From a virus: a stretch of 42,129 nt of DNA. Each line of letters opens with the position of its first letter. Within the stretch, counting starts at the first letter, position 1. Position numbers and translations under genes: made by a program. Location of the stretch: UHGV virus genome UHGV-0179013, one strand, 5' to 3'. Positions 1-42,129 of this stretch are shown here, piece after piece. The notes beneath the pieces were generated by a model. That model was not told the DNA's origin. It did no database searches and saw only the letters and a program-made list of their open reading frames with translations.

Positions 1-333
1 TCAAAACTGCGCCAATGCCGCCTCAAGAGATATCGCAGCATCAGTGCTGTTGATAAAGTGCGTCACCCGCCTCATAACCTCAGCCTCTTCAGCTGCATCA
101 CCTTCGATCGCTTCGCCGTCATCCGTGATTAACGCTTTCCCCCTAAGCTTCGCAAACTGCGTCCGACCTCCGGACAGAATCAACAGCGCATCACCCTGCT
201 GTGGGCGCGTGACCGGGACGATGATCGCATAACCCGCCGACGTCTCGAGGATGCGACTGTCGGGAGTCATGCAGACACTGGCTGGCGTAACCCGCTGCTC
301 TATATAGTCGGTAGATGGTGAAGGAAAGCCCAT
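1..333 (-). CDS. Hypothetical small protein (110 aa from ATG at 333; stop codon at 1-3); N-terminus MGFPSPSTDYIEQRV resembles the N-terminal arm of UmuD'/MucA-family proteins but no Ser/Lys peptidase motif is visible
   Basis: ATG at 333 preceded by AGAGGG Shine-Dalgarno; divergent from DinI-like gene with a LexA-box-like palindrome in the shared 78-bp intergenic region. The longer ORF-track start at 582 overlaps the dinI-like gene and is not favoured. Confidence 0.4.
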   Translation of the reverse strand: MGFPSPSTDYIEQRVTPASVCMTPDSRILETSAGYAIIVPVTRPQQGDALLILSGGRTQFAKLRGKALITDDGEAIEGDAAEEAEVMRRVTHFINSTDAAISLEAALAQF

Positions 334-411: not shown

Positions 412-654
412 ATGTTCGTGGAACTCGTTTATGACAAAAGGAATTTTGATGGGCTGCCTGGTGCAAAAGATATCATTCTGGGCGAATTGACTAAGAGGGT
501 TCACCGGGTCTTCCCTGATGCTGATGTCCGGGTGAAACCGATGATGACGTTGCCGGCGATCAATACTGACGCCAGCAAGCATGAGAAGGAGCAGATTAGC
601 CGTGTGGTTCAGGAAATGTTTGAAGAAGCAGAGTTCTGGTTAGTGAGTGAGTAA
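412..654 (+). CDS. DinI-family DNA-damage-inducible protein homologue (80 aa)
   Basis: Length and sequence pattern (GELTKRVHRVFPD ... KEQISRVVQEMFEEAEFWLVSE) parallel E. coli DinI (GELSRRIQYAFPD ... QRISEILQETWESADDWFVSE); AGAGGA RBS; LexA-like box upstream. Confidence 0.75.
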   Translation: MFVELVYDKRNFDGLPGAKDIILGELTKRVHRVFPDADVRVKPMMTLPAINTDASKHEKEQISRVVQEMFEEAEFWLVSE

Positions 655-23060: not shown

Positions 23061-23585
23061 TCAGCCAATCAACAATTCTGGCTGCGTCACCTGCATGATG
23101 TGCTCATGCTCCAGTGCCAGGACGCGCTTTTCCTTCTTGCGTTCGTTCATTAAACGACTGCCGATCGTGCCTTTCAGCTTCGAGCGTGTTTCTTTGATGG
23201 CATAGCGGTGCTGCATTTCTTCGCCCATCGCCATGCGTCGGCTAAGTTGTTCGGACATCCAGTTGAATGCTGAGATATAACTCTCTTTGATTGCTGCAGC
23301 AGCTCTCCCAGTGAATCCCATCACAACCATGATCCAGCCATCTCTTGTCAGGCTGTACATCGGGCGAACCTTACCCTGCTCATCGATATAATCAGCCGAC
23401 GCAAAATTGCGTTGGCCAAACTCACTCGAGCAATCGGACTTAACCTGCTCGATTTTCCTGAGCACATCGCCGTGTCGCTTGCCGAAGTACTTGGCAACTT
23501 TTCTGGAAGTGGTGACGACCTCTCCGTTTTTGGCTTGCACCATTTCGCGGAAGTCGAAGGCCGGAATAACTGACGGATTATTCAT
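23061..23585 (-). CDS. Rha-family phage regulatory protein
   Basis: About 174 aa from ATG at 23585 (MNNPSVIPAFDFREMV ... TSRKVAKYFGKRHGDVLRKIEQ), pattern typical of the Rha N-terminal domain. Confidence 0.65.
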   Translation of the reverse strand: MNNPSVIPAFDFREMVQAKNGEVVTTSRKVAKYFGKRHGDVLRKIEQVKSDCSSEFGQRNFASADYIDEQGKVRPMYSLTRDGWIMVVMGFTGRAAAAIKESYISAFNWMSEQLSRRMAMGEEMQHRYAIKETRSKLKGTIGSRLMNERKKEKRVLALEHEHIMQVTQPELLIG

Positions 23586-23730
23586 AGCGTTTTTACCTTT
23601 TAGAAAGATGAGCCTGTTCGCACAGAAAAGCCGCCCCGAGATGGTCGCCACCATATACGGCAGTTCTCAGGCTCAGCTTTCTGAAAGACTCGGGATTGTC
23701 ATGCGCTGCGATGCGCGGTTTACTGCTGGT

Positions 23731-26092: not shown

Positions 26093-26127
26093 CAATGAAT
26101 AACATGCTAATAAGCAAGGATAAGGCG

Positions 26128-27213
26128 ATGGCGAGTGTAGACTTTAGCTTTGAAGGACTTCTAATAGAGAGAATTATCGCACACAGAGTTTTTCCTAAAA
26201 GTGCTGATAAAACCTTAACTCCCCCAAAAACCAGCAAATTTTTAATGGCATTCAAACAAGATGCATTAGATGCTTTTCAGGTGAGGATTACTGAGGCCTT
26301 AGCAAGTAAATCTCATGGAATTGAAATGTCTATTGGTGGTGTTGGTGATGATTGTTTTTTGAATCTGTCGGCTTCAACGTTTTCTAATGATACAGAGCAC
26401 TTCATCAAGGTTACAGAACGACTTGCAAGTAAACTTAGCGAGGCACAATACAACAGTTCTGCCCCTGGTGGGATATTGGCTGTATTGTCAGGGCGCGTAG
26501 GAAATGACTCACTTCCATTCCTTGCGGTAATAAAAGCTGAAACCCAAAATGGTTTTAGAACTATTGAAAATGATGAGCAGGTGACAATGGAGTTTATTGC
26601 TGAGCTTCTTTTAACTCCAGCGCAACGTTTTTATAAGATTGGTTTTATAGTCCAAACTATTGCTTTACCTCCTGATAGTGATGGTAATTATAGCAGCTCA
26701 TCTTATCGTGCATTTTTGTTTGACCATTTAATGACATCGACAGAAACAAAAAACGCCGCCGGATATTTCTACTCTCGATTTTTAGATATGGATATAAGCA
26801 AATCATCAAAAAAACTTACTCAAGATTTTTTTGAGAATACTAGGGACTTCATTAATACCGCACAAATAGAGGAAAGTAATAAACTTGCGCTGCATGAGGC
26901 TTTAAGAAGTGAAATGCGCTCAAGAAAGACCACATTAAGCACTGCGGATTTCGCAGAAACCAACCTCCCAGAAGAAATGCAGGGGGAGTATTTGGATTTT
27001 ATGAAGAACAAAAGCTTCCCTGCTGCCGCAGTAACTAAAGACAATGGTTATATTGAATCCAAATTAAAAATAAGAAGCAAGCTCGTATTCTCCAATGATG
27101 TATGGGTTTCCGTACCGCCAGATCAATTAAAAAATCTTGTGGAAATTATCCCGTCGGATGATAATGAATCAACGATTTTGAAAATAAAAGGGCGACTTAA
27201 AAGTCAACAATAA
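26128..27213 (+). CDS. Cassette gene A: 361-aa protein with YejK/NdpA (NA37 nucleoid-associated protein)-like features
   Basis: ATG at 26128 behind AAGGATAAGG RBS (ORF-track start 26095 lacks an RBS). Segments SAPGGILAVLSGRVGNDSLPFLAVIKAE and C-terminal ESTILKIKGR parallel E. coli YejK ([40 protein letters not shown]). Very AT-rich; stop overlaps gene B start (TAATG). Confidence 0.45.
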   Translation: MASVDFSFEGLLIERIIAHRVFPKSADKTLTPPKTSKFLMAFKQDALDAFQVRITEALASKSHGIEMSIGGVGDDCFLNLSASTFSNDTEHFIKVTERLASKLSEAQYNSSAPGGILAVLSGRVGNDSLPFLAVIKAETQNGFRTIENDEQVTMEFIAELLLTPAQRFYKIGFIVQTIALPPDSDGNYSSSSYRAFLFDHLMTSTETKNAAGYFYSRFLDMDISKSSKKLTQDFFENTRDFINTAQIEESNKLALHEALRSEMRSRKTTLSTADFAETNLPEEMQGEYLDFMKNKSFPAAAVTKDNGYIESKLKIRSKLVFSNDVWVSVPPDQLKNLVEIIPSDDNESTILKIKGRLKSQQ

Positions 27214-28205
27214 TGGATATCAATGAGTTCCGTGAGTTTTTACAGGCAAACCAGGATGCTTACGCAGCTTGGGGGCAGTTTGTGTCTGAAGAAATTTACA
27301 GTACTCTTTGTAGCTCTCTAGGGGATGACAAAGCCAAGCTCTTTCTAAAGATCCACTCAGAACCAAGACTAAAAAGTATAGCCTCGGCATTAGGAAAGGT
27401 CAGCCGTAAAGGATATGACAATCCAGTAGTGCAAATGACTGATTTGATTGGTGTACGCTTTGTAGTTCTACTCTCTGTTGAAATCAGAGCTATCAGTGAA
27501 ATAATTGAAAACTGTGATAAATGGGATGCGACTGTTTCTAAAGACTATTTATCAGAGATTGATGTTAACCCCAAAATTTTTGACTATCAATCGCGGCATT
27601 ATGAGGTAAGGCCTAAAGCTCAATTCGATTACTGTGGACAAAGCATAACGCCTGAAATGTGCTGCGAAGTTCAAGTTAGAACATTGCTTCAGCATGCCTA
27701 TGCTGAATTAGTCCATGATAGCGTCTACAAGCCTTCCGGTGATGTACCAAAATCTGCTGAAAGGCAAATAGCGCGTAGCATGGCCTTAATGGAAACAACG
27801 GATGATCTTTTTTGCAAAACAATGGAAATCTTGGCTGACAATAGCAAAGAGAGAAATGAGCTTTTAGAATTTCTTTCAGGATATTACGCAGAAAAAATAG
27901 GGAGGCAGTATATTGATGAAGATTTGCATGTTAACTTCTCCGTCATTGACACCTTTAAAGACCACATTGACGACAACTTACCAAATAAAATACACACACT
28001 TCTCAGTGAGAAAAAATACATCTCTGCACGGATAATTAATAGAGTTGAATACAATCCTCTATTCACTCAACCATGTATATTATTTGTGTACTGGTTAGCA
28101 AGCCAGATAGACTCAGGGGAAATGCTTTCAACATGGCCCCTGCCGGGCAATATTAGTGGGCTGGAGATGGTGCTAAGTGATTTAGGGAAAAGTATTTCTC
28201 GTTAG
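27213..28205 (+). CDS. Cassette gene B: RelA/SpoT-type nucleotide pyrophosphokinase (synthetase-fold) domain protein with about 150-aa C-terminal extension of unknown function; candidate toxSAS-like effector
   Basis: Synthetase motifs in order: RLKSIASALGKVSRK, DLIGVRFVV, DYQSRHYEV, EVQVRTLLQHAYAELVHDSVYK; compare RelQ RVKSPESIIEKLERK, DIAGLRVV, GYRSYHLVV, EIQIRTLAMNFWATIEHSLNYK. Translationally coupled to gene A. Confidence 0.7.
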   Translation: MDINEFREFLQANQDAYAAWGQFVSEEIYSTLCSSLGDDKAKLFLKIHSEPRLKSIASALGKVSRKGYDNPVVQMTDLIGVRFVVLLSVEIRAISEIIENCDKWDATVSKDYLSEIDVNPKIFDYQSRHYEVRPKAQFDYCGQSITPEMCCEVQVRTLLQHAYAELVHDSVYKPSGDVPKSAERQIARSMALMETTDDLFCKTMEILADNSKERNELLEFLSGYYAEKIGRQYIDEDLHVNFSVIDTFKDHIDDNLPNKIHTLLSEKKYISARIINRVEYNPLFTQPCILFVYWLASQIDSGEMLSTWPLPGNISGLEMVLSDLGKSISR

Positions 28206-28244: not shown

Positions 28245-28673
28245 TTAAAAGTCTAACATGGCAATGCATCCATCTACGAACCCCATTGCCGTCTGTAGTT
28301 CCTTTCTTATAGTCCCATCAGAGCACTTTCGCTTTTTAGCAATGGATCTCAACGAGATACCGATAACGAAGTGGGCAACAATCAATTCATATTCATCAGG
28401 CTTATATTTACGTAAGCGAGCCACACATCCATCAATCATGATTCCCTCATCGTCATCACACTGAAGTCGTGATTTCTTACCATGAGGTAAAAGTCCCTTG
28501 AATCCAGCTGCAATGGGTTGCCAGTCGACACCACTACTATCGGCTGCCGCCCATGCTCCCCATAAATCCATCACTTCATACATATCACGCATTGCAATTT
28601 CTCTTTCGTCTTCTCTGCTTAAAGGGTTAGCTCCCTGAGGGCTGAAATGTTTGAGTGATGCTTCCAGTTTCAT
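28245..28673 (-). CDS. Q-like late-gene antitermination protein
   Basis: About 142 aa from ATG at 28673; C-terminal region LIVAHFVIGISLRSIAKKRKCSDGTIRKELQTAMGFVDGCIAM resembles the region-4-like HTH of phage 82/21-type Q proteins; last gene of the early operon after replication genes. Confidence 0.55.
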   Translation of the reverse strand: MKLEASLKHFSPQGANPLSREDEREIAMRDMYEVMDLWGAWAAADSSGVDWQPIAAGFKGLLPHGKKSRLQCDDDEGIMIDGCVARLRKYKPDEYELIVAHFVIGISLRSIAKKRKCSDGTIRKELQTAMGFVDGCIAMLDF

Positions 28674-29005
28674 TGGATAGTGCCTCCCTTCTCGGCAGTG
28701 CCAAACCAGCCAGGATGCGCCCACTGAATATCGGTAACTTTATGGCCTTTCCCCCATAGCGATATCGAACGCATTGCAACGTAGTGCATAAATATTTTTT
28801 CCCGCTCAAGCCATTCATCCTCAGGCTTATCTTCAAGAAACTCATCGATTGCATCAGCAATAAGGCCAAAGCATTCGGGATAGTCGCTATGACTGATATC
28901 TATGTCTCGTACAGCATCCTGGAGTTCCATGAAGCGCTTTTGGGTGAATAAATAAGACATTTCGTGAATTAGACGATCCATTATTGGTTCCTTAAGCTTT
29001 TGCAT
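28670..29005 (-). CDS. Hypothetical phage protein (nin-region position)
   Basis: About 111 aa from ATG at 29005 (longer ORF-track start would overlap the DnaB-like gene). Confidence 0.35.
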   Translation of the reverse strand: MQKLKEPIMDRLIHEMSYLFTQKRFMELQDAVRDIDISHSDYPECFGLIADAIDEFLEDKPEDEWLEREKIFMHYVAMRSISLWGKGHKVTDIQWAHPGWFGTAEKGGTIQ

Positions 29006-32229: not shown

Positions 32230-32534
32230 TGCCCCCCCTCCCACTGCCATGACGGCATCAAAACAAAGCCCATAGGATCGCTGACCTTTGCACACCTAAC
32301 ATCACCTGGCTGCACAATCTCCATCCCGATGTATCCGGCACAAAGTAAGAGCTCAAGAGCAATGAAAAGCTCATCAACGGAGCAACAGCAGAATTCTGCG
32401 AATTCCGATACACTGAGATAACGAAAACCTGAACAATCGCAGCTACCGGACATCCAGATGCGGCACATAATCAGGCGATGAAGGGCGCTTTCAAAAGGAT
32501 GTTTATTGATAAAATCAGGGATAGACTTACTCAT
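32226..32534 (-). CDS. Hypothetical Cys-rich small protein
   Basis: 102 aa, stop/start overlapped on both sides; multiple Cys (CDCSGF, CCCS); function unknown. Confidence 0.35.
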   Translation of the reverse strand: MSKSIPDFINKHPFESALHRLIMCRIWMSGSCDCSGFRYLSVSEFAEFCCCSVDELFIALELLLCAGYIGMEIVQPGDVRCAKVSDPMGFVLMPSWQWEGGQ

Positions 32535-33379
32535 GCGGCACCTGCCAACTCTTTGTCGTGGGTAAATTCACCTTTCCAGCGCTTCTTCATCGGAAGATGC
32601 CCCTTGAGATAGTGTCGGTAAATCCATACCGCGCCTTTGCGCAGAAGGATCGGTTTGAATGTGTCACGCATCTCGCCGTCGTCCTGTTCTACTTGACCAG
32701 AACGCTCACTGAGGTAGAGATCGCGTGCATAGTGATGAACCCGCCAGCGCGGATATTTAGCCTTTGGCTGGTCGTCGTAGAGCCAGTTATGTTCGAACAA
32801 AAACGCATTAACCTGCTGGACGTTGACGCCGTTCAGCTGCTTACAGAACTGGCAAGGAGACATACCCGGCTGAAAGAGGTTTTCCAGGTGCTCGATGTAC
32901 TTTGCCTGTCGCTCGACGTATCCAAGCGCACGCCGGGCAGCTTCACGTTCGTCAGCCCATGCACGCGCAGCAGCCACCTCATCTGAGAAATCAGGCAGAT
33001 CTGAGTTAACCGCCACCAGCTTACCTGTGCGAAAGTCGAGGAAGGTCTGATTCACCTGCAAGCGGAATACTGGTGAGATCCACCCGGCATACTCAATGGC
33101 CAGCAGTTCGTGAGCGAAAGTGCCGCCATTCCTGCCTTCGTCTGAAACTATGCAAATCTGCACAGTTTCTTTTTCCAGCTCAGCGATTAGCGATTTAGCA
33201 GTTTGAGTGCGCAACCACTGGGCAGGGGCTTTGTTAGCACCAAGCCCACTCGCCTTGTGCAAAGCATTCAGGTTAAAACGCCCCTCAGCATCGGTAGTGA
33301 TTTCCACACCTGCAATAACAGGTAGGCTTTCAGCACCATTACTTGAATTATTCAGATGTTTATTGATATTATTTTTCAC
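32531..33379 (-). CDS. KilA-N domain protein with C-terminal ANT-like antirepressor domain
   Basis: 282 aa; N-terminal VIAGVEITTDAEGRFNLNALHKASG pattern of KilA-N domains; C-terminal region typical of phage antirepressor C-domains. Confidence 0.6.
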   Translation of the reverse strand: MKNNINKHLNNSSNGAESLPVIAGVEITTDAEGRFNLNALHKASGLGANKAPAQWLRTQTAKSLIAELEKETVQICIVSDEGRNGGTFAHELLAIEYAGWISPVFRLQVNQTFLDFRTGKLVAVNSDLPDFSDEVAAARAWADEREAARRALGYVERQAKYIEHLENLFQPGMSPCQFCKQLNGVNVQQVNAFLFEHNWLYDDQPKAKYPRWRVHHYARDLYLSERSGQVEQDDGEMRDTFKPILLRKGAVWIYRHYLKGHLPMKKRWKGEFTHDKELAGAA

Positions 33380-33690
33380 GAATTTACCTCGCCAGGTAGA
33401 TTTATGCAGGTATGAACAGTAGTGAAGTTAGAAAAGGCCGGTGAGGGAACCCATTCTCTTTCCGGCCTTTTTCTTGCCGTCTCTCCGATCTGCTGTTGTC
33501 GTCTGACCTTTAGCCCACTGGCGCGCGTAGTGAAGACAATCGTCATACGCCCTGCCTTTACGGGTTGCCTGCGACATCCGGCGGTAGTGGTCAACGCCGA
33601 TCTGCCCCCCCCCTGACACACCTGCTCAGAAAATCCCTCGGACGCCAGCTGCGCGGCAATATTCTTGCGAATAAAATCTACCGGATTCAT
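33376..33690 (-). CDS. Small early protein in cII position, reading frame ambiguous across a G9 homopolymer
   Basis: ATG at 33690 behind GGAGG RBS; the N-terminal 29 codons run into G9 (33605-33613), where a second frame (ORF 33428-33619) opens; as-is frame ends at an ATGA overlap with the KilA-N gene. Confidence 0.4.
   Translation of the reverse strand: MNPVDFIRKNIAAQLASEGFSEQVCQGGGRSALTTTAGCRRQPVKAGRMTIVFTTRASGLKVRRQQQIGETARKRPEREWVPSPAFSNFTTVHTCINLPGEVNS
33434..33475 (+). terminator. Plus-strand intrinsic terminator antisense to the early operon (oop-like antisense RNA 3' end)
   Basis: Roughly 15-bp interrupted stem (AAGGCCGG ... CCGGCCTT with inner GAGGGAA/TTCTCTT pairing) followed by TTTTTCTT on the plus strand; no plus-strand gene ends here. 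Confidence 0.45.
33605..33613. repeat. Homopolymer tract (C9 on plus strand, G9 in the coding strand) at a reading-frame junction
   Basis: Nine consecutive C at 33605-33613; a +1 nt change would fuse the ATG-initiated N-terminus to the alternative downstream frame. Confidence 0.9.
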
Positions 33691-33694
33691 ACTG

Positions 33695-34174
33695 TTATCC
33701 CCTCCAGAACATCAAATGAGACAGGATATGGAAAACCCGATCGCTAAACTTGCGCTTAACTACTGGTACAAAGTGCTTATTGCTGGCGGATTCTTTGTCT
33801 TCTTGGTGAATGGAACCGGGATCCTCACTGCATACCCGACAGCAGGTACTGGACTCATTTCCCTTGGTTGCGCTTTGTGGGGAGTCGGCGAATGGATTAA
33901 CCACCCCTACCAGGAGGTATTGATCCCCGGAGTTTTTGGCCGACCATCCGGGAAGCTGTCCGGTTACCCCAGAAAAGTCAGCTTGGCCGGTATTGCCTTC
34001 GATGTTATCGGTGGCGCCCTTATCGTCTTTGGAATTGTTAAATTGTTCCAATGACCACCCAATTAGACTTACACCCCCAGTAGCTGGATCGATAACTACA
34101 GACCCAGGAAACTTACGCTCAAGATCAACCAGCATCATCCTTAGCGCCTCAAGGTCAGAATATCGCTGTGGCAT
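33695..34174 (-). CDS. Hypothetical early protein immediately downstream of cro (159 aa)
   Basis: ATG at 34174 behind GAGGTG RBS, 2 nt after the Cro-like stop; low-complexity Gly/Ser/Asp-rich middle; fully overlapped by a membrane-like antisense ORF. Confidence 0.4.
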   Translation of the reverse strand: MPQRYSDLEALRMMLVDLERKFPGSVVIDPATGGVSLIGWSLEQFNNSKDDKGATDNIEGNTGQADFSGVTGQLPGWSAKNSGDQYLLVGVVNPFADSPQSATKGNESSTCCRVCSEDPGSIHQEDKESASNKHFVPVVKRKFSDRVFHILSHLMFWRG

Positions 34175-34175
34175 G

Positions 34176-34415
34176 TCACACCTCTGCGCTTCTATTCCTC
34201 AATGGAGAAAAAATGAGATTTTCTTTTTTCAAACTGAGGTTGGGGGAAACCTTAGATACAGCAACCTCAATACGTGAGGCCATTGCTACAGATGGACGAC
34301 GGAACCCTAAAGCCATTTGATTTAAGTAAGCGACGCTCGTGCCCGATAGTTGAGCCAACTGCTTCCACTCATCTGTAGTCATAACGTCCCTGATTGAGAG
34401 CAATCCTCTATACAT
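34176..34415 (-). CDS. Cro-like HTH transcriptional regulator
   Basis: 79 aa from ATG at 34415 (GGAGG RBS), or 68 aa from ATG at 34382; HTH segment WKQLAQLSGTSVAYLNQMALGFRRPSVAMASRIEV; divergent from repressor gene across the operator region. Confidence 0.65.
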   Translation of the reverse strand: MYRGLLSIRDVMTTDEWKQLAQLSGTSVAYLNQMALGFRRPSVAMASRIEVAVSKVSPNLSLKKENLIFSPLRNRSAEV

Positions 34416-34440
34416 GTTACCTCCCGCTCTGTATTCATTA

Positions 34441-34507
34441 TTAGCAACGTGCTAACATTAGCACACCACCAAACAATGTAGCAATACGCTACAAAGCACA
34501 TTGCTAA
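34441..34507. promoter_or_regulatory. Immunity-region operator cluster with TTAGCA/TGCTAA half-sites
   Basis: TTAGCAacgTGCTAA (34441-34455), TTAGCA (34459), TGTAGCAatacGCTACA (34478-34494), TGCTAA (34502) in the 105-bp divergent cro/repressor intergenic region. Confidence 0.5.
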
Positions 34508-34520
34508 CAAAGGGGCCAAC

Positions 34521-34976
34521 ATGGAAATCAAAGATATTCGATTAAATAACCTACAATCAGTAATTCAACGCAGCGGTTTAACGCAGACTGAATTGGCTTT
34601 GAAATGTGATATATCTCCTTCACTTATCAGCCAGATAATGACTAAACGCAGAAATATGGGGACCGCTTTTGCCCGGAAACTGGAAGGTAGGCTAAATCTT
34701 TCAGAAGGGTGGTTTGACATGCCTCACTCCCTGCTAGACTCGCCGTGGCATCTGGCAAAAATGGGAGAAAAAGACAATCTAGTGGCTGGTCAAGAACAAC
34801 CATTAAACAAAAGAGAGAGCCGTCTTGTAGAGCTATTCAGACAGATGCCTGAAAGCGAAAAAGACAGAATAATAAATGATTTAGCACAAAAAAAACGAGA
34901 TTTTGACAAACTTCTTGATGAACTAATGGCCGTGAAAGCTGCAAAGATGCCAATTGATAAAAATGAAAATGAATAA
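34521..34976 (+). CDS. CI-like prophage repressor, XRE-type HTH, without S24 peptidase (non-autocleavable) domain
   Basis: 151 aa; N-terminal HTH LTQTELALKCDISPSLISQIM; C-terminal part is charged/coiled-coil-like with no Ser-Lys peptidase motif; AAGGGG RBS. Confidence 0.65.
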   Translation: MEIKDIRLNNLQSVIQRSGLTQTELALKCDISPSLISQIMTKRRNMGTAFARKLEGRLNLSEGWFDMPHSLLDSPWHLAKMGEKDNLVAGQEQPLNKRESRLVELFRQMPESEKDRIINDLAQKKRDFDKLLDELMAVKAAKMPIDKNENE

Positions 34977-35001: not shown

Positions 35002-35023
35002 AGCAAAATATTAGCATTTTGCT
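35002..35023. terminator. Hairpin AGCAAAAT-ATTAGC-ATTTTGCT after repressor gene (possible terminator; loop carries an operator half-site)
   Basis: Perfect 8-bp inverted repeat preceded by an A7 run; loop sequence ATTAGC matches the TTAGCA operator half-site. Confidence 0.3.
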
Positions 35024-35024
35024 A

Positions 35025-35085
35025 TTGTCAAAATTAACGCGCAGCGCTACATTCACCTCATCCAGTAAATTAGTGAGGTGAATGT
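35025..35085 (+). promoter_or_regulatory. Candidate promoter (TTGTCA-17 bp-TACATT) overlapped by a perfect 13-bp inverted repeat TACATTCACCTCA-N11-TGAGGTGAATGTA that covers the -10, RBS and start region of the downstream gene
   Basis: Inverted repeat arms at 35048-35060 and 35074-35086; right arm contains the GAGGTG Shine-Dalgarno. Confidence 0.45.
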
Positions 35086-35086
35086 A

Positions 35087-35533
35087 ATGTTCAGTACAAA
35101 TCACGACCCAAGATCAATTAATTCTCTTTTGCTTTGTGCTCAGGTAGCGTTATTGAATGGTTCTGTTTCAAATATCGATATTATCAATGTTTTAGACGTA
35201 GCGCAGGACCTAATTTCATTAACCGTCACCAGCTCGGCTGATAATGAAATAAGCGCCACTAATTCAAACAAAGAACAACCCACACCACGATACGCTCCTT
35301 ACACTGGCAGTATTAACATTGGTCAACGCATACGACTGGCACGCAAATACTCTGACCTAAAACAGAGCCATATAGCTAACGCTTTAGGGGTAACCATTCA
35401 AGCGGTGTCCTTATGGGAAAATGACTCAACAGTTCCCACCTGCGACAAAATTATCCCACTGGCTAACGTACTTAAATGCGATCCGATGTGGTTATTATCA
35501 GGTGCTCCTTTAGAAGTCACAGAGGAATCCTGA
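35087..35533 (+). CDS. Hypothetical protein with C-terminal XRE-type HTH domain (148 aa)
   Basis: ATG at 35087 behind GAGGTG (ORF-track start 35078 is GTG); HTH IGQRIRLARKYSDLKQSHIANALGVTIQAVSLWEN; AT-rich locus downstream of repressor (rex-like position). Confidence 0.5.
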   Translation: MFSTNHDPRSINSLLLCAQVALLNGSVSNIDIINVLDVAQDLISLTVTSSADNEISATNSNKEQPTPRYAPYTGSINIGQRIRLARKYSDLKQSHIANALGVTIQAVSLWENDSTVPTCDKIIPLANVLKCDPMWLLSGAPLEVTEES

Positions 35534-36010: not shown

Positions 36011-36307
36011 ATGCAAATGAATATTATCGTCAGAAATGAAGTCGTGAATAACAAAGCCCATCCAGCCAATCAGGATGACGACATTCTTTACATAAACAAA
36101 GCCCACAAAACAGCAGAGTGTGCCAATAAATATGCACATGAACTCCGTGCTGAATTTACCCAGTTGCTTATGCCAGCAATCACACGCACTGATGTGAAGG
36201 TAGCGGGAAGATTCACCTCATTACTTAATGAGCTTTGCTTCATGACAAAAATGACGATGGAGAACACCTCAAAGGGGGGGGGCAATAATGACGTTTCTGA
36301 AAGATAA
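36011..36307 (+). CDS. Hypothetical early protein (98 aa)
   Basis: ATG behind GAGGA RBS; AT-rich. Confidence 0.4.
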   Translation: MQMNIIVRNEVVNNKAHPANQDDDILYINKAHKTAECANKYAHELRAEFTQLLMPAITRTDVKVAGRFTSLLNELCFMTKMTMENTSKGGGNNDVSER

Positions 36308-36400: not shown

Positions 36401-36763
36401 GTGACAATGAAAAACAACATCATTGAAATTTATCGCCGCCGCATTGCTATTGCGACATTAAACCGAATGAAGCGCAAGACAGGAGGTTATTGTCTCTCCG
36501 TAAATATGCCCGATGACAATATTCAGGTTATCGAGATTAACGAAGAATCAATGCTGAAACTTTTGCTGCGCTTCGAAAAACAGGCTCGGACTGAATTCAA
36601 CACAGAAGCGGAAACATTTCTTCGCCAGACGTATATGAAAAGCGTCGATATCAATGGACACACCGAATATCTGACCGAAACCGGAAAGATGATTGTTGAC
36701 GAGATTTTTGCGGAATTAATTAAACACGCGAAAGAGAAATACGTATGTGGAGGAATTAACTGA
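36401..36763 (+). CDS. Hypothetical early protein (120 aa)
   Basis: ORF in early-left operon; stop overlaps next ATG (TGATG). Confidence 0.4.
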   Translation: MTMKNNIIEIYRRRIAIATLNRMKRKTGGYCLSVNMPDDNIQVIEINEESMLKLLLRFEKQARTEFNTEAETFLRQTYMKSVDINGHTEYLTETGKMIVDEIFAELIKHAKEKYVCGGIN

Positions 36764-37013
36764 TGGCCTCACAACAAACAATTATTCACGGAATGCAGAT
36801 CCCCCCCCAGTCCTCAACGTGGATCTGCATGTGCTTCCGGATTTCACCGGACGCGTGGTTCTTTACATCGAAAAAGGGCGTGTGACATGCGACCGCCGGC
36901 TGCTCGACGACGAACATATTTGCGCACTGGACACTTTTATCGAAATGGCCCGCGAAGCCGGGTTACGTATACAGGAGCTAACTGGTGGCACTGACAGCAA
37001 TTCGAATACCTGA
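36763..37013 (+). CDS. Hypothetical early protein whose ATG-initiated frame and long ORF are separated by a C8 homopolymer (frameshift or sequencing error or phase-variable)
   Basis: ATG at 36763 coupled to upstream stop; after C8 (36801-36808) this frame stops after 39 codons, whereas a +1 C would join it to the 88-codon ORF 36747-37013, which itself has only a GTG start. Confidence 0.3.
36801..36808. repeat. Homopolymer tract C8 at a reading-frame junction
   Basis: Eight consecutive C at 36801-36808. Confidence 0.9.
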
Positions 37014-37711: not shown

Positions 37712-37996
37712 ATGATGATGAAAAACGAACTTATCACTGTGTGGTACATCGTCACATTCATGGTGACTGAAAATGCCGAGCGCCGCGAATATTCAATCTT
37801 TGTCGGCAGTAGTAGCGAAATGGAGGCGGTGGTTTCTGCGACTGCTGGGCTCTGTAAGGGACATGCTGAATTCAGCGAACCAGCATTCAAATCTATCCGC
37901 ATCGCGACCTATGGCGAGGCCGGATCGCTTGATGCAGAACTCGATGCAATTGCCGAACGGGAACAGAAAGAACTGGAGGAAGAAGACAATGAGTAA
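37712..37996 (+). CDS. Hypothetical early protein (94 aa) with acidic C-terminus
   Basis: ORF ending in an overlap with the Bro-N gene start. Confidence 0.4.
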   Translation: MMMKNELITVWYIVTFMVTENAERREYSIFVGSSSEMEAVVSATAGLCKGHAEFSEPAFKSIRIATYGEAGSLDAELDAIAEREQKELEEEDNE

Positions 37997-38747
37997 TCAA
38001 CTGATGAAATTTAACTCGTCGGATCTCGGCATTTCTCTGAGCGGGATGCTTTACCAGGGGAAACCAGTATTTGATGCCGTTGAGCTGGCAAAATCCCTGG
38101 GTTACGCAAATCCGGCTGACGCGCTAAAAACTCACTGCAAGTCATTGATTAAACTTAATTATAGCGAATCGCGAGAATTGGGTTTTAACGACAAAATTCG
38201 TGGCATGCAACTTGCGTCTGAATCTGATGCTTACCGGCTCATTCTCCGTAGCCAGCTTGCTTCCGCTGAACGTGTACAAGACTGGGTATGCGAAGATGTT
38301 CTGCCATCTATCCGCGAAACTGGCAGCTATAGATACCAACGCCCTAAATCTCAGGCGGAGATCATTGCCGAAATGGCTCTGCTGAATGTTGAGCAGGAGC
38401 GTCGCCTTAACCACGTTGAGGACAAGGTCGTTGAGGTTACCGAGCTAGTAGATCATATCGCTCGTGGTGCAACGCCTCCTGGTTGGGCTGGATACTCAGA
38501 ATTGAAAGCACTGTGCGGACTTTCAGATGCAAAGTGTCGCCAGTTAGTATCCGCTTATGACATCGACCATAAGCCTATCCCATTTATTGCGCCTGGAGGA
38601 ACCAAATCCACCATGACCATTGTGCGTGAGCAGCCATTTATGACGGCATTCACCAAAATGATGTTTGAAGCTGAACCTCGAGGCACCCGGTGGTATCACC
38701 CTAAGATGGGGCTGTTCCAGGTGATTGGATGGGATGGTCAACAGTGA
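37989..38747 (+). CDS. Bro-N domain protein (phage antirepressor-like)
   Basis: ATG at 37989 (ORF-track start 37773 is upstream in the same frame); N-terminus MKFNSSDLGISLSGMLYQGKPVFDAVELAKSLGYANPADALKTHCKS fits the Bro-N pattern. Confidence 0.55.
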   Translation: MSNQLMKFNSSDLGISLSGMLYQGKPVFDAVELAKSLGYANPADALKTHCKSLIKLNYSESRELGFNDKIRGMQLASESDAYRLILRSQLASAERVQDWVCEDVLPSIRETGSYRYQRPKSQAEIIAEMALLNVEQERRLNHVEDKVVEVTELVDHIARGATPPGWAGYSELKALCGLSDAKCRQLVSAYDIDHKPIPFIAPGGTKSTMTIVREQPFMTAFTKMMFEAEPRGTRWYHPKMGLFQVIGWDGQQ

Positions 38748-40815: not shown

Positions 40816-42129
40816 ATGGATAAAATCACATATCCAACAGGCGTCGAAAACCACGGTGGCAGTCTGCGCATCTGGTTTAATTTTAAAGGTAAGCGCGTCA
40901 GGGAAAACCTCGGTGTCCCTGACACCGCTAAGAACAGGAAGATCGCCGGGGAACTGCGGGTGTCGGTATGCTTTGCCATCCGCACGGGAAGCTTTGATTA
41001 TGCTGAACGGTTTCCAGATTCACCTAACCTTAAAATTTTTGGGTTGGGCAAGAAAGAAATCACAGTGAAAGAACTCGAAGAGAAGTGGCTGGATCTGAAA
41101 AAGATGGAAATCAGCGCGAACGCGCACAAACGGTACGAGTCGGTCGTGGCAGTTGTTGTACCGCTGATCGGGGCTACCCGACTAGTGACAGCGATTGAGA
41201 AAGAAGAGTTGCTGTACATCAGGAAAGAGCTTTTGATGGGTTATCAGTGCGCGGCAAAGGGCAGGATCCCTGTTAAGGGCCGGAGCGCGGTCACCGTCAA
41301 TTACTACATGACGACTATCGCCGGAATGTTCCAGTTCGCCGCCGATAATGGGTACATAAAGGCAAATCCCTTTGATGGAATAAAGCCATTAAAAAGGGCC
41401 AGGGTGGAGCCAGATCCGCTCAGCCGTGATGAATTCATCCGTCTGATAGATGCGTGCCGGCATCAGCAGACGAAAAACATGTGGTCACTGGCGGTGTACA
41501 CAGGTGTTCGTCACGGAGAACTGGTTTCCCTGGCATGGGAAGATATAGACCTTGAAGCGGGTACAATAACAATTCGCCGTAATTATACAAAACTGGGCGA
41601 GTTCACACTACCGAAAACGGACGCCAGTACGGATAGAGTGATACACCTCATTCAGCCAGCCATCGATGCGTTAAGGAATCAGATGGAAATGACTAGACTC
41701 GGGCAGCAGTATCACATCAACGTGCAATTGCGTGAATATGGTCGAACAACGCAGCACAGCTGTACATTTGTCTTTAACCCTAAGATAGTCCGTCGAAGTA
41801 AGGATGTGGGGGTTATCTACAAGGTTGATTCGTTTGGTGACTCGTGGGACGCAGGGTTAAAAAAGGCGGGGATCAGGCATCGAAAAGCTTACCAGTCGCG
41901 CCACACTTACGCGTGCTGGTCACTGGCCGCTGGCGCCAATCCAAGCTTTATAGCCAGTCAGATGGGGCACGCTAGTGCGCAAATGGTTTTCAATGTGTAC
42001 GGCGCATGGATGGCAGACAATAACGCAGAGCAGATCGCAATGCTGAATCAGAAGCTGGGTGATTTTGCCCCATTGATGCCCCATAGACCACAAACTAGCA
42101 GTAGAGGATTATTAAAATCAGTAAGTTAA
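40816..42129 (+). CDS. int: Tyrosine recombinase / phage integrase (lambda-type, with N-terminal arm-binding domain)
   Basis: 437 aa; catalytic-region signatures TGVRHGEL, SRHTYACWSLAAGANPSFIASQMGHAS, NVYGAWM (R, H-x-x-R, Y); stop codon is the last three bases of the window. Confidence 0.9.
   Translation: MDKITYPTGVENHGGSLRIWFNFKGKRVRENLGVPDTAKNRKIAGELRVSVCFAIRTGSFDYAERFPDSPNLKIFGLGKKEITVKELEEKWLDLKKMEISANAHKRYESVVAVVVPLIGATRLVTAIEKEELLYIRKELLMGYQCAAKGRIPVKGRSAVTVNYYMTTIAGMFQFAADNGYIKANPFDGIKPLKRARVEPDPLSRDEFIRLIDACRHQQTKNMWSLAVYTGVRHGELVSLAWEDIDLEAGTITIRRNYTKLGEFTLPKTDASTDRVIHLIQPAIDALRNQMEMTRLGQQYHINVQLREYGRTTQHSCTFVFNPKIVRRSKDVGVIYKVDSFGDSWDAGLKKAGIRHRKAYQSRHTYACWSLAAGANPSFIASQMGHASAQMVFNVYGAWMADNNAEQIAMLNQKLGDFAPLMPHRPQTSSRGLLKSVS

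Follow-up and report, generated by a model that had tools for sequence, protein, structure and literature searches.

Sequence analysis of a lambdoid immunity switch with a non-cleavable repressor and a putative self-repressed antirepressor

How is a prophage induced when its repressor lacks the domain with which lambda-type repressors cut themselves? The question is raised by the immunity region of the UHGV virus genome UHGV-0179013, whose 42,129 nucleotides (the window) represent a complete lambdoid prophage of Enterobacteriaceae (Citrobacter/Enterobacter type), lying in reversed orientation. An earlier note on this DNA had proposed that induction is antirepressor-mediated and SOS-coupled, without RecA-stimulated cleavage of the repressor, and had put forward a Rha, a KilA-N/ANT and a Bro-N protein as the antirepressors. 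The repressor's non-cleavability and the antirepressor principle stand after our analysis; the genes named and the SOS link do not. We consider it moderately probable that the window carries a lambdoid immunity switch in which a non-cleavable repressor works through four operators and an antirepressor of the FsoA/GftA/Rem family serves as a repressed latch, with no SOS trigger in cis.

The repressor and its operators

The protein at the centre of the switch is encoded as follows.

34521-34976, plus strand: prophage repressor of 151 amino acids, with a helix-turn-helix (HTH) N-terminus, a disordered linker and a DicA/GtgR-type helical C-terminus

HTH_3 (PF01381; residues 16-65, E 3.5e-7) is the only Pfam domain of this protein, and no S24 domain was detected in it by Pfam, PHROGs or NCBIfam, nor any Ser/Lys dyad or conserved Ala-Gly site. 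The fold predicted by AlphaFold is helical throughout, the HTH lying at residues 3-57, a low-confidence or disordered linker at residues 72-92 and a helical hairpin at residues 97-142. Homologues have the same composition, since the members of all 25 clusters (25/25) are 149-166 amino acids long and contain PF01381 alone, without S24, around a hypervariable linker. The description of the repressor in the earlier note, a 151-residue HTH protein without an S24 autopeptidase, is therefore borne out and, as there is no protease domain, RecA cannot make the repressor cut itself.

The C-terminal domain connects the repressor with two characterized systems. Residues 95-139 align with DicA residues 85-129 (36% identity, E 2e-8), the NCBIfam DicA model NF007257 matches residues 91-139 (E 6e-8; the whole protein scores 32.6 bits, for a curated cut-off of 101) and the C-terminus also matches GtgR of Gifsy-2 (E 1e-6). 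The motif L..(K/R)E..L..LF..(M/L)PE.EK is common to the repressor, GtgR and DicA. This homology is confined to the C-terminal domain, the HTH domain being derived from another lineage: the first 70 residues resemble the DNA-binding domain of H-19B CI (38% identity) and residues 3-71 align with residues 4-73 of SPC32H Rep (33% identity). By its C-terminal domain the repressor would belong to the Gifsy/DicA class; that it cannot cut itself is well founded.

The repressor resembles the lambda CI, P22 C2 and LexA-type systems in gene order (cro, OR, repressor, OL/PL) and in the three-site logic of OR, but it has none of the S24 autopeptidase, conserved Ala-Gly and Ser/Lys dyad of those proteins. 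Its best solved-structure match, in sequence and in fold, is SPC32H Rep (PDB 5D50), although the similarity is limited to the N-terminal domain of Rep. The SPC32H papers of 2013 and 2016 reportedly describe the inactivation of Rep by an antirepressor; tblastn with E values up to 10 gave no SPC32H Ant homologue in the window. With the repressors of Gifsy-1, -2 and -3 (GfoR, GtgR and GfhR, paired with GfoA, GftA and GfhA) it shares a size of about 140-150 amino acids, the absence of S24 and the GtgR C-terminal motif, but not the lineage of the HTH, which is H-19B CI- or SPC32H Rep-like in the window. The Gifsy repressors GfoR, GfhR and GtgR are not cleaved on induction and are inactivated by the small antirepressors GfoA/GftA (PMC3121763). 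Like the Qin prophage, with its DicA/DicC/Rem system, the window has divergent repressor and cro-like genes in addition to the C-terminal repressor homology.

The operator region comprises the following elements.

34176-34415, minus strand: Cro-like small HTH protein of 79 amino acids, taken from the open reading frame (ORF) list, with a weak HTH_3 match (E 5.7e-4)
34441-34455: OR1, TTAGCAACGTGCTAA, a perfect inverted repeat over the predicted start site of the cro promoter
34455-34485, minus strand: predicted cro promoter, with -35 TTGCTA (34485 to 34480), an 18-bp spacer and extended -10 TGcTAATGT (34463 to 34455)
34478-34492: OR2, GTAGCAATACGCTAC, a weaker site
34493-34507: OR3, AAAGCACATTGCTAA, overlapping the -10 and start site predicted for the promoter of the repressor gene
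35011-35025: OL, TTAGCATTTTGCTAT, abutting the -35 of the leftward-operon promoter
35025-35053, plus strand: PL-equivalent promoter (TTGTCA, 17 bp, TACATT), the sole promoter-scan hit in the region

With two mismatches or fewer allowed, TTAGCANNNTGCTAA was found at 34441-34455 (0 mismatches), 34493-34507 (2), 35011-35025 (1) and one unrelated site. The relaxed core WAGCANNNYGCTW (WAGCA-N3-YGCTW) was matched in only four places of the 42 kb (34442, 34479, 34494 and 35012); counted as strand-matches, seven were observed for 0.71 expected, and none of 100 shuffles reached seven. The inverted TTAGCA/TGCTAA operators described in the earlier note are thus present, as three 15-bp sites in the divergent cro/repressor region, and a fourth lies 3' of the repressor gene, at OL. 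The extra half-site at 34458-34463, of the kind mentioned in the note, would be better read as the extended -10 of the cro promoter.

The footprint of the sites was followed in five cassette variants whose repressors are 82-100% identical to that of the window (97% in the Salmonella copy), and in all of which cro adjoins the repressor gene (77-100% identity). The half-sites are invariant across the five, while the spacers and flanking DNA vary, as do the leader sequences and the 13 bp separating OR1 from OR2. OR1 is nearly invariant, the Salmonella copy having one substitution just outside the WAGCANNNYGCTW core. At OR2 the core AGCAATACGCT is kept, with one substitution in the Salmonella copy, and the outer bases change with dyad symmetry retained (TGTAGC..GCTACA vs TACAGC..GCTGTA). 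The AAAGCA and GCTAA half-sites of OR3 do not vary and its central four bases are free to do so, and OL is the same in all variants.

The conserved TGCTAATGT on the minus strand at 34463-34455 would be the extended -10 of the cro promoter, with the -35 located within OR2; TG-n-TAATGT is kept in all variants, the TTAACA one included. This promoter, read from the sequence, was not returned by the stricter promoter scan. TA(C/T)AAA at 34490-34495 (TACAAA in the window) would be the -10 of the repressor's own promoter, lying under OR3. At PL the -10 is invariant and the -35 differs by one base in one variant (L017) and in the Salmonella copy. In the predicted occupancy, the repressor HTH would recognise 15-bp TTAGCA-N3-TGCTAA sites, OR1 and OR2 would cover the cro promoter, OR3 would cover the promoter of the repressor itself and OL would act next to the -35 of PL.

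An antirepressor-family gene in the leftward operon

If the repressor cannot cut itself, what could remove it? A candidate is encoded in the leftward early (PL) operon, which reads rightward in the window.

36401-36763, plus strand: conserved protein of 120 amino acids (phrog_1737), directly upstream of the antirepressor-like gene
36747-37013, plus strand: small antirepressor-family gene (GftA/GfoA/FsoA/Rem), 88 amino acids from GTG 36747 (phrog_340)

This second ORF was absent from the list used in the earlier note. It matches phrog_340 (E 5e-25), which is also matched by E. coli Rem (E 4e-21), so that Rem of the Qin prophage falls in the same PHROG. Its closest sequence relative is STM0898.2n of Fels-1 (67.5% identity), and it is 33% identical to GftA of Gifsy-2. 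No significant match was obtained when Rem and GftA were compared with the window by BLAST, and the gene was found through profile searches and the comparison with Fels-1. The GftA/FsoA/Rem family has been validated as antirepressors by experiment; no second gene of it was found with the family hidden Markov model in six-frame translations of the window and its left flank, and a PDB sequence search with the antirepressor-like protein gave no match.

STM0898.2n lies in the leftward operon of Fels-1 between STM0896 and the repressor gene, which is consistent with the mapping of fsoA to the STM0896-STM0897 interval (PMC3121763). In Fels-1 as in the window, the antirepressor gene directly follows the phrog_1737 gene in the leftward early operon (66% and 67% identity for the pair). 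The two prophages differ in that the Fels-1 repressor is of the cleavable CI type and in that its antirepressor gene has no poly-C tract. Because the window repressor carries a DicA/GtgR-type domain, self-targeting by the FsoA-like protein is possible.

Wherever the region downstream of a variant of this repressor was examined (L004-L008, L016, L018, L001 of E. coli and L098 of Salmonella), an equivalent gene was present 3' of the repressor gene; in L017 it was not detected. It usually stands directly after the phrog_1737 gene, and its product diverges down to about 44% identity. In the window the gene is read from the same strand as PL, about 1.7 kb downstream of OL/PL, and no plus-strand terminator was found between PL and the gene. 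This points to Fels-1-type wiring, in which the antirepressor gene would be under the control of the phage repressor and not of LexA, as reported for FsoA (PMC3121763). The Gifsy prophages share the small antirepressor of this protein family but place it in a LexA-boxed dinI-antirepressor-irsA operon. In the Qin prophage Rem is not known as LexA-controlled either, but its gene sits close to Q, at the opposite side of the prophage.

The reading frame of the gene varies. An ATG at 36763 is preceded by a strong ribosome-binding site (RBS; GGAGG 9 nt upstream), but with the C8 tract present at 36801-36808 it is out of frame and meets a stop after 40 codons, leaving GTG 36747 as the only in-frame start. 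Among 26 sequences the tract was C8 in eight, C9 in ten, an interrupted 9-nt tract in one, C10 in six and C12 in one. The C9 and C12 relatives are in frame from the ATG and about half of the 26 sequences are out of frame, therefore either the tract length truly varies or the gene often decays. The variation could be due to slipped-strand phase variation, gene decay or homopolymer assembly error. Judging from the frame, expression of the antirepressor from the window copy is probably low or off. Another homopolymer is found upstream, a poly-G tract at 36275-36283 (G9) in the ORF 36011-36307, which varies between G9 and G10; in sister prophages with an identical repressor G10 splits this ORF into pieces of 90 and 37 amino acids.

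We put forward as a tentative idea, and a rather unlikely one, that the antirepressor gene is a contingency locus, in which slippage in the poly-C tract toggles the latch protein and inducibility is set by phase variation and by neighbouring prophages instead of by an SOS sensor of the prophage's own. If so, C9 and C12 copies would be read from the strong ATG, C8 would leave the weak GTG and C10 would be off. Lysogens of one clone would in that case differ in their readiness for lytic growth and in their ability to induce neighbour prophages.

The leftward operon begins with another gene that may bear on the switch.

35048-35086, plus strand: RNA hairpin (ACATTCACCTCA ... TGAGGTGAATGT), in which the PL -10 region pairs with the RBS and start of the following gene
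35087-35533, plus strand: second HTH protein, 148 amino acids, first gene of the leftward operon (phrog_4836)

In the predicted structure of the 148-residue protein a helical hairpin comes first, followed by a linker and, at the C-terminus, an HTH, a layout that is the mirror image of that of the repressor. This HTH and the N-terminal one of DicA have 39% identity, so that the DicA-type HTH, which is part of the repressor in Qin, is found in the window on the neighbour of the repressor. The segment 35040-35100 folds with -21.9 kcal/mol (z = -5.8; 0 of 200 shuffles as stable), the arms of the hairpin being kept and its loop variable. From the pairing, the hairpin would hide the RBS of the 148-residue gene in transcripts that read through from the repressor gene, and would not do so in PL transcripts.

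The real partner in the switch might be this protein, which once PL fires would act as a poison subunit, its N-terminal hairpin pairing with the C-terminal hairpin of the repressor, or as a second Cro, its DicA-like HTH competing at the operators; we regard this as unlikely. The gene tracks this repressor type, standing beside it in every variant (Citrobacter/Enterobacter, E. coli and Salmonella), and a homologue accompanies a different, DicA-like repressor in L096, whereas it is absent with S24-type repressors. The mirrored architecture and the hiding of the RBS in read-through transcripts, a sign that lysogeny may be harmed when the protein is made, agree with such a role. On the other hand, the protein has no homologue of known function, its recognition helix varies among homologues and its gene is under OL control like the antirepressor gene, hence it would not be the first trigger.

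LexA boxes, the nominated antirepressors and the rest of the prophage

The earlier note had taken a LexA box at the far left end of the prophage as the link between the switch and the SOS response. A box is indeed present there, in fact two of them.

1-333, minus strand: UmuD'-like protein of 110 amino acids, LexA-controlled (phrog_3469, E 1e-40)
353-372 and 377-396: two LexA boxes, TGCTGGATAAAAACACAGTA and TACTGTATATGCATCCAGTA, with scores of 22.2 and 24.1
412-654, plus strand: DinI homologue of 80 amino acids, LexA-controlled (Pfam DinI, E 1.5e-18)
723-1313, convergent: tail-fibre assembly gene, starting 68 bp after dinI (Caudo_TAP, PF02413, shown in the equivalent gene of L010)

The scores are from a position weight matrix (PWM) built from E. 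coli LexA sites, which as a positive control recovers the published Gifsy-2 box upstream of dinI. An exact search for CTGT-N8-ACAG gave no match, the boxes present being of the CTG-N10-CAG type. Shuffled sequence reached a mean maximum of 12.3, and the next-best score in the window was lower (10.6). The two boxes sit between the DinI gene and the divergent UmuD'-like gene and drive only these two, and no operon gene follows dinI because the convergent tail-fibre assembly gene begins 68 bp further on. In this the window differs from Gifsy, as its dinI stands alone at the tail-fibre end and no irsA homologue was found in the window. The ORF 647-874, with a GTG start right after dinI, was considered as a Gifsy-type antirepressor and rejected, as it is antisense to the tail-fibre assembly gene and has no family match.

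The same divergent cassette is present in phage mEp390, whose repressor belongs to the LexA family (S24). Among IMG/VR contigs, 38 had the UmuD'-like gene and 10 this repressor type, with an overlap of 0. The cassette is therefore portable SOS-regulated cargo outside the switch. In 20 related loci the same PWM gave no LexA box in the 4-10 kb around the repressor. The coupling of the switch to SOS through the left-end box is thus not supported. An identical UmuD'-like protein was found across Enterobacteriaceae, on 701 contigs, and the stop codon of its gene is often the point where prophage calls in IMG/VR end. Beyond the left end of the window, related assemblies carry as cargo a hemerythrin gene and a second, LexA-boxed dinI (L010, 4600-6250). 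In Fels-1 (L013) a LexA box, TACTGTAAATAAATACAGTG, with a score of 23.5 is located at 1922-1941, inside the annotated Fels-1 repressor gene.

The cassette also bears on proteolysis of the repressor by another agent, whether the LexA-controlled UmuD'-like protein cuts it in trans at Ala89-Gly90 or a host protease degrades it. The repressor linker does contain the sequence VAGQ, and an S24-related protein under LexA control is encoded in the same prophage, but the Ala-Gly pair is lost even in homologues 82-91% identical to the repressor. In both the UmuD'-like protein and its mEp390 homologue the segment with the nucleophile Ser60 of UmuD is a gap in the alignment, and the cassette is not co-inherited with the repressor. 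We reject trans-cleavage by the UmuD'-like protein because this catalytic Ser segment is absent, and we give proteolysis as a whole hardly any credence.

The three genes nominated as antirepressors were located by domain matches where the earlier note had placed them.

23061-23654, minus strand: Rha-family protein (Phage_pRha, E 8e-28), in the late region
32531-33379, minus strand: KilA-N/ANT protein (E 1e-20 and 2e-5), in the cro-side early operon, downstream of cro
37989-38747, plus strand: Bro-N protein (E 2e-15), in the leftward early (PL) operon

That one of them is the antirepressor, coupled to SOS through the left-end LexA box, strikes us as very improbable. The three domains are there, many of their PHROGs families are labelled 'anti-repressor' and the LexA boxes of the prophage are real. 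However, the PWM scan of the window revealed no LexA box near Rha, KilA-N/ANT or Bro-N, the best score outside the cassette being under the shuffle background, and in mEp390 the cassette itself goes together with a repressor that can be cleaved. A strong intrinsic terminator (23758-23737) precedes Rha, a gene of the late region, and KilA-N/ANT and Bro-N are in operons under the repressor itself. None of the three is thus in a position to set off induction, and none would be expressed independently of the repressor, from a LexA-controlled or separate promoter. Moreover, the immunity cassette has no KilA-N/ANT gene in its E. coli and Salmonella versions. The segment 23780-24003 near Rha contains a strong promoter-like site (TTAATA, 16 bp, TGgTATAAT) ahead of a gene for a 54-residue protein with two CxxC pairs, which is followed by the strong intrinsic terminator just upstream of Rha.

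The remainder of the prophage has the usual modules. From left to right these are the tail-fibre/baseplate genes, head genes and terminase, lysis genes, the Q antiterminator, DnaB-like/DnaC-like replication genes and the immunity region, followed by the long early operon, the excisionase and the integrase.

28245-28724: Q antiterminator
40816-42129: integrase

In related assemblies the element has yecD on one side and yecE on the other. A protein identical to the repressor is annotated as multispecies Enterobacteriaceae, and one identical to its 148-residue neighbour is from Citrobacter. No relatives of the repressor were found in two scans of species-representative genomes, and no close DNA match to the window was found in the phage collection. 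Just 3' of cro, at 33665-34174, two ORFs overlap on opposite strands, one of 159 amino acids with a low-complexity tail on the minus strand and one of about 108 amino acids, small-membrane-protein-like, on the plus strand; gene callers are split between assemblies on which is real. Between the lysis genes and Q, at 26095-28205, two plus-strand cargo genes encode a homologue of the nucleoid-associated protein NA37 (372 amino acids) and a RelA/SpoT-domain protein resembling small alarmone synthetases (330 amino acids), which together may form a defence or toxin module.

How the switch may be thrown

In the mechanism that we favour, the repressor would be inactivated through binding (sequestration) by a small antirepressor, by homology with Gifsy and DicA, and the cognate-type antirepressor would be the product of the 36747-37013 gene, inside the OL-repressed operon. 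As this gene would itself be repressed at OL, the antirepressor could not sense DNA damage and could only amplify a first leak. The result would be a positive-feedback latch, in which a leak from PL yields antirepressor, which removes more repressor. The prophage itself seems to carry no trigger under SOS control; what first acts on the switch is inferred, as is the interaction of repressor and antirepressor. Most likely the first push would be given by another prophage of the same cell, through an antirepressor under LexA control, or the switch would flip independently of SOS, as in DicA/DicC. Crosstalk between prophages through LexA-controlled antirepressors was shown by Lemire et al. (PMC3121763), and Rem relieves repression by DicA although the DicA/DicC switch also flips without RecA or Rem (Ragunathan et al. 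2023, PMC10448788). The antirepressor may in turn act in trans on related repressors of neighbour prophages, as FsoA of Fels-1 does.

That last activity could be the only one. The FsoA-like protein would then be a weapon or signal against the DicA/GtgR-type repressors of other prophages, and the switch of the window itself would flip otherwise, which we see as possible, at clearly less weight than the latch. The FsoA-like module also travels with S24-type repressors (Fels-1, L085 and L088); its presence therefore does not depend on a DicA-type repressor, and other prophages may be its only target. FsoA has no role in the induction of Fels-1 itself, yet induces Gifsy-2 (PMC3121763). Against this stand the DicA/GtgR-type C-terminal domain of the window's own repressor and the fact that the antirepressor gene follows the repressor type in every variant examined downstream, even where the antirepressors are only about 44% identical.

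The association of the module with S24-type repressors also weighs against the latch that we propose, as do several other points. The pairing of repressor and antirepressor is argued from homology, and specificity within the antirepressor family is narrow, GtgR being unaffected by GfoA and GfhA (PMC3121763). The antirepressor gene of the window is out of frame from its well-placed ATG. The model gives no role to the conserved 148-residue HTH partner. The roles given to promoters and operators were read from the sequence, and other SOS-linked routes may be compatible with the absence of a LexA box.

The switch belongs to the already known Gifsy/DicA/Fels-1 kind of repressor-antirepressor system, homologues of which were predicted in Citrobacter, Enterobacter, Klebsiella and E. 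coli (Lemire, Figueroa-Bossi and Bossi 2011, PMC3121763). What appears to be new is the pairing of a self-repressed antirepressor with a Gifsy/DicA-type repressor. If correct, it would explain the orphan look of FsoA in Fels-1 and would provide a concrete example of a prophage that relies on its neighbours, or on SOS-independent flipping, to begin induction. Neither the 'anti-repressor' labels on Rha, Bro and KilA-N/ANT proteins nor the presence of any LexA box in a prophage is a good guide to the circuit that really controls induction. In Salmonella, Citrobacter, Enterobacter, Klebsiella and E. coli, the time at which prophages pass on their cargo is set by induction through an antirepressor instead of through repressor cleavage, and so is the influence of co-resident prophages on one another.

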